Positions 44,639 through 45,975 of a stretch of 64,000 nucleotides of DNA are shown in pieces. The notes beneath the pieces were generated by a model. That model saw nothing but the letters and a program-made list of their open reading frames with translations, searched no databases and was not told the DNA's origin. Every line of letters starts with the position of its first letter. The first letter of the stretch is position 1. A program made the translations under genes and the position numbers. Source of the stretch: Promethearchaeota archaeon (GTDB lineage Archaea; Asgardarchaeota; Lokiarchaeia; Sigyniarchaeales; SOKP01); NCBI GenBank assembly GCA_048939995.1, contig JBHLOY010000011.1, forward strand, positions 64,001-128,000, given 5' to 3'.

Positions 44639-45975
44639 TAAATCTTTTCATCCAAGACTATCGTGTCAGTTCTTGCGGGACCAATTGAAATCATGCTTAT
44701 ATTTGTTTGTAATTCGTCTTTAATTGATTGAATATATGTTTTCATAGTATTTGGTAATGAATTGTATCCTTTCTTAGCAATTTCTGACCACTCGTTTCTT
44801 GATATTTTGTCCCAACCTTCAAATTCTTTGTATATCGGACTACACTTTTTAATTATTTCATGATGAATCGGCCAACTTTCTAAAATACTTCCATTCAACT
44901 CATATCCAGTACACATTTTAAGGGGGCTTACTCCTTCTAAGGCATCAAGTAAAGTAATTATTATATTATCTATTCCATTGATCATAACTCCATATTTTAA
45001 ATTGAAAAGATCAATCCAGCCTACTCTTCTTGGACGTCCTGTTACAGTTCCATATTCATGTCCTTGTTCTCGAATTTTATCAGCACTCTCCCCAAATAAC
45101 TCTGTTGGAATTGTTCCTTCTCCTACTCTTGAAGTATATGCTTTAATAATTCCATAGATTTTACCTATTTTTTTTGGTGGAATCCCTGAACCGGCACTAA
45201 TCCCTAGAGCATTAGCATTTGATGAGGTGCCGTATGGATACATGCCATGATCTATTCCCAATAAACTTCCTTGGGCTCCTTCAAAAAGAATTTTCTTCCC
45301 CCCATCAATTGCTTTGTTGAGATAATAGGCAGTATCAATTACATAAGGCTTTAATTGTTCACCATAATCTTTATATTCCTTATATATCACATTTATATCC
45401 ATGTCCCAACTAGGGTCATAAATATTAATCAGTGCTTTTTTTAATTTAAACAATTTTTCTAATTTGGTTTTCAAGATATCGGGGTTAATTAAATCAAAAA
45501 TTCTTATCCCCCATCGTGCTGCTTTATCAGAATAAGCAGGACCAATTCCTCTTTTAGTAGTTCCAGCACTATATTCTCCTTTCCTTTCTTCTTCTAAACC
45601 ATCTAAAATACGATGAAAGGGGAAAATTACATGTGAAGTTGAGCTAATTTTTAAATTAATCTTTTTATCTAATTTTTTTAAATTATCTATTTCTTCTAAA
45701 AGAACTTTTGGATCCACTACAACTCCATTTCCAATTACATTCTCTTTTTCTAGTGGAGCACCAGAAGGCATCAATTTGAATTTATATTTAATTCCATCAG
45801 CAACAATAGTATGCCCCGCATTATTGCCACCATTAAATCTCACAACAATATCTGATTTTTGAGCTAAATAGTCGACAAACTTTCCTTTTCCTTCATATAG
45901 GGTTAAGAGCATATTGCATCTTTAATCTCCCCAACTTAGCCCAATAACAGCAATTGTGTTTACTTTATTGTCCAT
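44635..45975 (-). CDS. purA: Adenylosuccinate synthetase, split by a 30-nt putative intron (exons 45975-45927 and 45896-44635; 436 aa if spliced)
   Basis: Exon 1 [16 protein letters not shown](D) joins EGKGK; [25 protein letters not shown] and [14 protein letters not shown] are all intact. Confidence 0.9.
45897..45926 (-). other. Putative BHB-type (tRNA-endonuclease-spliced) mRNA intron, 30 nt
   Basis: mRNA GGGG-AG^A-UUAAAGAUGCAAUAUGCUCUUAA-CCCU-AU^A. The insert carries an in-frame UAA, and excision restores TGG GGA GAT GAA GGA AAA. Confidence 0.75.

Follow-up and report, generated by a model that had tools for sequence, protein, structure and literature searches.

Results

The only purA gene of an Asgard archaeon is interrupted within its catalytic P-loop

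The window analysed here is a stretch of 64,000 nucleotides (positions 64,001 to 128,000 of contig JBHLOY010000011.1) from a Promethearchaeota archaeon whose genome assembly (3.75 Mb, 98% complete) contains four actin genes by Pfam (best E 1e-132), in keeping with an Asgard archaeon. The minus strand of the window carries purA at positions 44635-45975, which both a protein search and a family search identified as the sole purA locus of the genome; purB is intact. A GNAT-family open reading frame on the plus strand (44210-44638) converges with purA, so that the stop codons of the two genes overlap by 4 nt. The same strand also carries a gene of the tyrosine phenol-lyase/tryptophanase family (40397-41782), which scores barely above the cut-off of its model (TIGR02618, 725.7 against 720.7 bits).

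Read from the ATG at 45975, the minus strand of purA specifies 17 residues, a TAA, nine further codons and then EGKGK, from which an intact PurA sequence runs to the stop codon at 44635. The Asp codon of the WGDEGKGK motif is split by an insert of 30 nt (45926-45897, minus strand), in which the TAA lies in frame at 45924-45922. Aligned with intronless relatives, exon 1 (45927-45975) comprises 16 codons plus the G that opens the catalytic Asp codon, and exon 2 (44635-45896) comprises the final two bases of that codon, 419 codons and the stop. Excision of the insert joins G to AU and yields a protein of 436 amino acids, which is the length of PurA in an intronless congener, and the GDEGKGK P-loop is complete only after this joining. 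The spliced product scores 458 bits with TIGR00184 (cut-off 395.55) and far under the cut-off with the PurZ model, and a match to PF00709 spans exon 1 with one TAA within it. We take the P-loop Asp to be catalytic by reference to Asp13 of the E. coli enzyme; the literature that we searched yielded no paper on this residue of PurA. An earlier sequence-only reading of the window had described a TAA-bearing insert of 30 nt in an otherwise intact purA and had suggested that such genes may be misannotated as truncations. The sequence agrees with the former, and the latter is borne out by the NCBI entry for purA, a truncated 425-aa protein starting MLLTLY. The corresponding open reading frame (44635-45912, minus strand) starts at an ATG inside the insert and, as had been noted, its product lacks the P-loop Asp.

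The insert is predicted to fold as a relaxed bulge-helix-bulge

As predicted from the sequence of the transcript, the exon-1 strand GGGG (45932-45929, minus strand throughout) pairs with CCCU of the insert (45902-45899) to form a 4-bp central helix (H), flanked by the 3-nt bulges AGA (45928-45926) and AUA (45898-45896); the coordinates of helix and bulges given in the sequence-only reading proved to be exact. On the intron side the motif is closed by a hairpin, h' (45925-45903), with an irregular stem, in which UUAA at 45925-45922 faces UUAA at 45906-45903, and a 5-nt loop. The predicted cuts lie between 45927 and 45926 (AG^A) and between 45897 and 45896 (AU^A), and both follow the second base of the 3-nt bulges that flank the 4-bp helix, which is where the archaeal splicing endonuclease EndA cuts (PMC5829648, PMC2738675). 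A 2-nt repeat (AU) at the insert of this genome allows three equivalent junctions. Within the window, a 4-bp central helix combined with a 4-bp intron helix at a fixed spacing of 30 nt occurs at 89 of 127,880 positions (0.07%). Compared with shuffled sequences the hairpin alone shows no unusual stability (z from -0.84 to +0.71), and stability by itself is therefore not evidence. The bulge-helix-bulge (BHB) is the predicted minimum-energy fold of fragments of 37 and 66 nt; in an 82-nt context its pairs are predicted to reach an equilibrium probability of about 8-10%, at 2.5 kcal/mol above the minimum. Because the core of the motif is a minor conformer in this longer context, enzyme-assisted folding or partial splicing of the purA precursor is possible.

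The sequence-only reading had further held that the outer helix between the exons is weak. This is correct immediately beside the bulge, where the adjacent exon-exon duplex has a predicted energy of +0.1 kcal/mol, that is, no adjacent outer helix is formed, but a displaced helix of 8 bp (-11.6 kcal/mol) is found about 30 nt into exon 2. Its exon-1 arm, GGGCUAAG (45942-45935), lies in Gly-Leu-Ser codons and its exon-2 arm, UUUAGCUC (45868-45861), in Tyr-Leu-Ala codons; pair probabilities range from 0.54 to 1.0, and its formation is almost certain according to the 82-nt prediction. Since no adjacent exon-exon helix h closes the 3' bulge, the modelled structure is of the relaxed HBh' form, and the strict hBHBh' form is without support here. 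That the BHB is a minor predicted conformer and that its outer helix is displaced make it conceivable that splicing at these same RNA positions is the work of another enzyme, or is aided by a guide RNA or a protein, and is not achieved by EndA and the ligase RtcB alone. Against this stand the two cuts, which obey the EndA rule (PMC5829648), and the presence in the genome of an EndA with a broad-specificity loop (see below), and we regard the involvement of such a helper or substitute as unlikely.

Junction and pairing are conserved in the insert-bearing purA loci of the family

Of the first 30 purA loci from the genus, those of the six closest relatives have a 30-nt insert as well and 22 have none. 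The sequence-only reading had pointed to purA of related genomes as a source of presence or absence and of compensatory stem changes; aligned across the family, 26 of 103 purA loci carry an insert at the same Asp codon, in 4 genera and as 22 distinct sequences, with the pairing of its stems kept through base changes. These inserts are 30, 31 or 32 nt long, and all 26 stop the frame or shift it, so that translation ends within a few codons. Cutting at the BHB positions yields WGDEGKGK in every one of the 26 loci. The first base of the insert is T, C or G in 11 of the 22 variants (the third base of the 5' bulge being A in 11, T in 5, C in 4 and G in 2), and only a G|AY junction rebuilds the Asp codon. 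Because 11 variants begin with a base other than A, the register of the junction is G|AY, and in both bulges this places the cut behind the second base. The cut sites AG^A and AU^A of the sequence-only reading are fixed independently by the relatives.

The same variants bear on ribosomal bypassing of the type known from T4 gene 60, in which the ribosome would leave the message at GAU, ahead of the UAA hairpin, and land 30 nt further on, with no RNA processing. This genome on its own, with an Asp codon, a stop and a hairpin, looks compatible with such hopping, and its AU repeat leaves the junction ambiguous. However, the take-off codon GAU is without a matching landing codon (UAU), and the unspliced RNA of 11 of the 22 variants is without any Asp codon (split as G|AY) until the halves are joined, which removes hopping as a general account. 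The conserved exon-intron and exon-exon pairing, moreover, is unnecessary for hopping, and we consider bypassing highly improbable. Insert length likewise weighs on the idea that a working enzyme is made without splicing, either by read-through of the stop or by restart at the internal ATG. The form of 30 nt is in frame, and the ATG at 45912 opens the 425-aa frame held by NCBI, but the variants of 31 and 32 nt, which make up 13 of the 26 loci, shift the frame. Read-through would insert 10 residues into the P-loop; the internal ATG is not conserved, being absent from most relatives' inserts, and restart there gives a product without the P-loop Asp. Either route is scarcely credible.

The elements of the predicted fold are conserved together with the junction. 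The exon-1 strand GGGG of the central helix is invariant in all 26 insert-bearing loci, and its four pairs are kept in 20 of the 22 variants, with exchanges between G-C and G-U, while two variants have a G-A mismatch. The first four pairs of h' are kept in 20, 22, 19 and 20 of the 22 variants, respectively, with A-U, U-A and G-C as alternatives (at the fourth pair, A-U in 7, U-A in 4, G-C in 8 and G-U in 1). Pairing in both H and h' survives one-sided as well as two-sided base changes. The 3' bulge is A-N-A in all 22 variants (AUA in 14, AAA in 6, AGA in 2), and the Gly codon that supplies the A of the 5' bulge is GGA in 26/26 insert-bearing loci compared to 29/76 intronless loci.

Pairing between the exons takes two forms. 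In 15 carriers, from 4 genera, the exon-1 Gly-Leu-Ser codons pair with codons that lie some 30 nt inside exon 2, as in this genome, with strengths of -10 to -15 kcal/mol. Nine other carriers have an adjacent exon-exon helix, one base offset from the textbook form, and in these nine genomes the helix shows covariation at synonymous sites (Leu CTC with Glu GAG in three, CTT with GAA in six). An exon-exon duplex of -9.7 kcal/mol or stronger is predicted for 24 of 26 insert-bearing and 3 of 76 intronless loci, and at -6 kcal/mol the numbers are 24 and 18, respectively; duplex and score thresholds were picked after inspection of the data, and the loci include kin that are not independent. The genomes G093 and G103 have insert-bearing loci without a strong duplex. 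Three intronless loci of congeners (L009, L012 and L236, of genomes G028, G017 and G150) retain the displaced pairing at -11.1 kcal/mol, possibly as a trace of intron loss.

A second intact purA, with relaxed selection on the interrupted copy, had been raised in the sequence-only reading and was looked for. The gene is single-copy, and dN/dS between pairs of insert-bearing purA genes is 0.06-0.11 (0.03-0.18 between intronless pairs), with branch lengths that resemble those of intronless genes. Judged by these substitution rates, insert-bearing purA is under purifying selection. The in-frame stop near the 5' end would suit a pseudogene, all the more as purine salvage might make purA dispensable, and the insert could also be thought the scar of a mobile element or an error of assembly. 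Yet the insert recurs in 26 independent genomes in which the frame is otherwise intact, dN/dS is about 0.1 and branch lengths are as in intronless genes. A like insert lies in the indispensable single EF-1alpha gene (see below), and the G-U pairs in H indicate a structure in RNA, not DNA. With 25 other genomes interrupted at this codon, an assembly error is excluded, and we judge all three explanations very unlikely.

On the PurA tree the distribution of the insert is clustered relative to shuffles and requires 10 changes, of which strong branches force 5 or more. Since the ends of the hairpin and the displaced helix are shared across genera, the sequences suggest an old intron whose repeated loss lies behind the patchy distribution; the alternative would be repeated gain at a favoured site. 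Three further observations concern individual genomes. The purA gene of G084 has a second BHB-shaped insert of 31 nt (L156, 1626-1656) immediately behind the His codon of NAGH, and thus two introns adjoining catalytic residues. G110 gave two full-length purA matches (L197 and L223; identities of 79% and 74%) that fall in separate parts of the tree, through either contamination (7%) or the presence of a genuine second copy. A pattern match in G154 (L169) was a chance match outside purA and was rejected.

The genome encodes a broad-specificity EndA, an intact RtcB and further candidate introns

The sequence-only reading had deemed a broad-specificity EndA necessary for an intron of this relaxed type, and the genome possesses one, together with the ligase. 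EndA is represented by two genes. The product of the first, the alpha subunit, has the A. pernix EndA as its best match (E 5e-37) and, aligned to structure 3P1Z, retains the loop lysine K44 as well as Y125, H133, R157, K164 and W183, whose roles are given in PMC3241643. The second gene is without the His, which fits a beta subunit. By sequence, then, the EndA of this genome is of the two-subunit TACK/Asgard type with a broad-specificity loop and an intact Y/H/K triad; Asgard archaea have been reported to possess this type of EndA and its loop (PMC5829648). RtcB is intact (PF01139 match of 559 bits, no stops).

Several tRNA genes attain normal length once BHB-shaped inserts of 18-33 nt are removed, and these inserts lie at non-canonical positions (after nucleotides 21, 25, 27, 29 or 45), as assigned from length and geometry. 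They include inserts of 28-33 nt outside position 37/38 in genes for tRNA-Thr, -Arg, -Ala and -Gln. ARAGORN recognised only 20 tRNA genes genome-wide and misnamed many. The tRNA genes that were not resolved may have multiple introns each.

Hidden introns elsewhere in the genome, as the sequence-only reading had predicted, were found in EF-1alpha, dnaG, a MoxR-type ATPase gene and others. A homology-first scan used as reference 539 proteins from 2.4 of the 4.36 Mb (55%) of a complete relative, G044. Its five best-supported frame-breaking inserts lie in purA, EF-1alpha, dnaG, the MoxR-type ATPase gene and an unnamed gene, and in all five a 4-bp H lies in the register that the reference protein dictates. 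A strict geometry test was passed by 4 of 12 frame-breaking matches and by 4 of 182 in-frame insertions; the lower-scoring frame-breaking matches look like alignment noise. The EF-1alpha insert (33 nt, near position 167345 of contig C11, minus strand, in the gene at 166072-167400) contains two stops and splits the P-loop as GHIDHG|KST. As this is the sole gene of the genome above the TIGR00483 cut-off, the cell requires some means of removing the insert. The other three, each homology-backed, frame-breaking and BHB-shaped, are a 34-nt insert in dnaG (C11, 487250, minus strand), a 30-nt insert in the MoxR-type ATPase gene (C7, 20329, plus strand) and a 33-nt insert in the unnamed gene (C17, 23476, plus strand). 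An ab initio scan for BHB motifs was noisy, with 40,784 raw motifs, 654 that join open reading frames and 91 that also fit a tighter profile, and its matches are reported only if they restore a motif or are backed by homology. They comprise BHB-shaped inserts of 30-32 nt, the removal of which joins frames and rebuilds plausible motifs, at C6 82172 (plus strand), C28 379867 (plus), C38 64707 (plus), C23 175447 (minus), C13 36130 (plus) and C17 (minus strand, strand index 151026). From their motifs, the genes concerned are presumably metG (insert before HIGH), a GHMP kinase, a CoA-transferase III, a PurM-like gene and two unnamed genes.

Discussion

Overall, we consider that the insert in purA is a real and conserved pre-mRNA intron of the relaxed BHB type, removed by RNA splicing, a reading to which we give a probability of roughly 0.92. 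Comparison with 25 related genomes indicates that production of the enzyme requires prior cutting and rejoining of the purA message. The course of splicing that we infer from the sequences, including the in vivo fold, the parts of EndA and RtcB and the function of the displaced helix, is as follows. In the transcript, GGGG of exon 1 would pair with CCCU of the intron, leaving an A-rich bulge on either side, and the hairpin would close the motif on the intron side. The 8-bp helix (45942-45935 with 45868-45861) would take the place of an adjacent outer helix and keep the exons together at a distance. The heterotetrameric tRNA-splicing endonuclease would then cleave both bulges behind their second base and RtcB would ligate the exons, restoring the catalytic Asp codon and the 436-aa PurA; a message left unspliced would give a peptide of 17 amino acids.

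The closest precedent is the intron in cbf5 pre-mRNA of Desulfurococcales and Sulfolobales (Watanabe 2002; Yoshinari 2006; Yokobori 2009, PMC2738675). The proven cbf5 intron has an unconventional BHB and separates the first base of a catalytic Asp codon from the second; cbf5 introns measure 16-44 nt and have undergone secondary losses, and the same study mentions predicted introns in other protein-coding genes that lacked confirmation (PMC2738675). The purA intron resembles that of cbf5 in being short (30-32 compared to 16-44 nt), in its relaxed BHB, cut between the second and third base of each bulge, in its placement between the first and second base of a catalytic Asp codon, in its occurrence in a host with a heterotetrameric EndA and in its patchy distribution with probable secondary losses. 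It differs in the gene concerned and in a host that is an Asgard archaeon and not a crenarchaeote. It is also not a single case, as EF-1alpha, dnaG and others in this genome carry inserts of this kind, and the exon-exon helix of purA exists in two alternative forms, one of them displaced by about 30 nt. Finally, splicing is proven for cbf5, whereas for purA it is deduced. Non-canonical archaeal tRNA introns (HBh', hBH and BHL forms, cut by an (alpha-beta)2 EndA with an L1/CSL loop; PMC5829648, PMC3241643) are alike in motif, size range and enzyme, but the host RNA of the purA intron is a messenger, and synonymous codon positions provide its exon-exon pairing.

A study of 2020 named cbf5 as the sole earlier mRNA case and added a BHB intron in the 5' UTR of Haloferax volcanii HVO_1309, likewise an mRNA as substrate of the splicing endonuclease (PMC7714728). 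In contrast to that of purA, the HVO_1309 intron lies in an untranslated leader and breaks no reading frame, and the EndA of its host is of a different type. In eukaryotes, the HAC1 and XBP1 messages undergo non-spliceosomal splicing, in which IRE1 cuts at two stem-loops and a tRNA ligase joins the exons under stress regulation. There, as proposed for purA, a short mRNA intron is removed by endonuclease cleavage and tRNA-ligase joining, which turns a reading frame on; for purA, however, the proposed endonuclease is the tRNA enzyme acting at a BHB and not IRE1, and regulation by stress is a feature of the eukaryotic system. Entries in the reference list of PMC5829648 link RtcB to splicing of the HAC1/XBP1 type. 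In the literature that we searched, mostly outside subscription journals, we found no report of mRNA introns in Asgard archaea, and cbf5 was the only case of splicing within an archaeal coding sequence. The notable new elements are the Asgard lineage, the scale (several genes) and the displaced exon-exon helix.

It is likely that tRNA-type splicing is routine in this Asgard family, such that purA, the sole EF-1alpha, dnaG, metG and more genes need EndA and RtcB before translation, with introns gained and lost at catalytic codons and exon codons that co-evolve for pairing. This would amount to a genome-wide, non-spliceosomal layer of expression in the closest prokaryotic relatives of eukaryotes. 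A practical consequence is that databases carry a truncated and catalytically incomplete PurA for this genome. If our reading is true, mRNA splicing would be an ordinary requirement in Asgard archaea, which bears on the uncoupling of transcription and translation before a nucleus existed and on the origin of splicing of the HAC1/XBP1 type.
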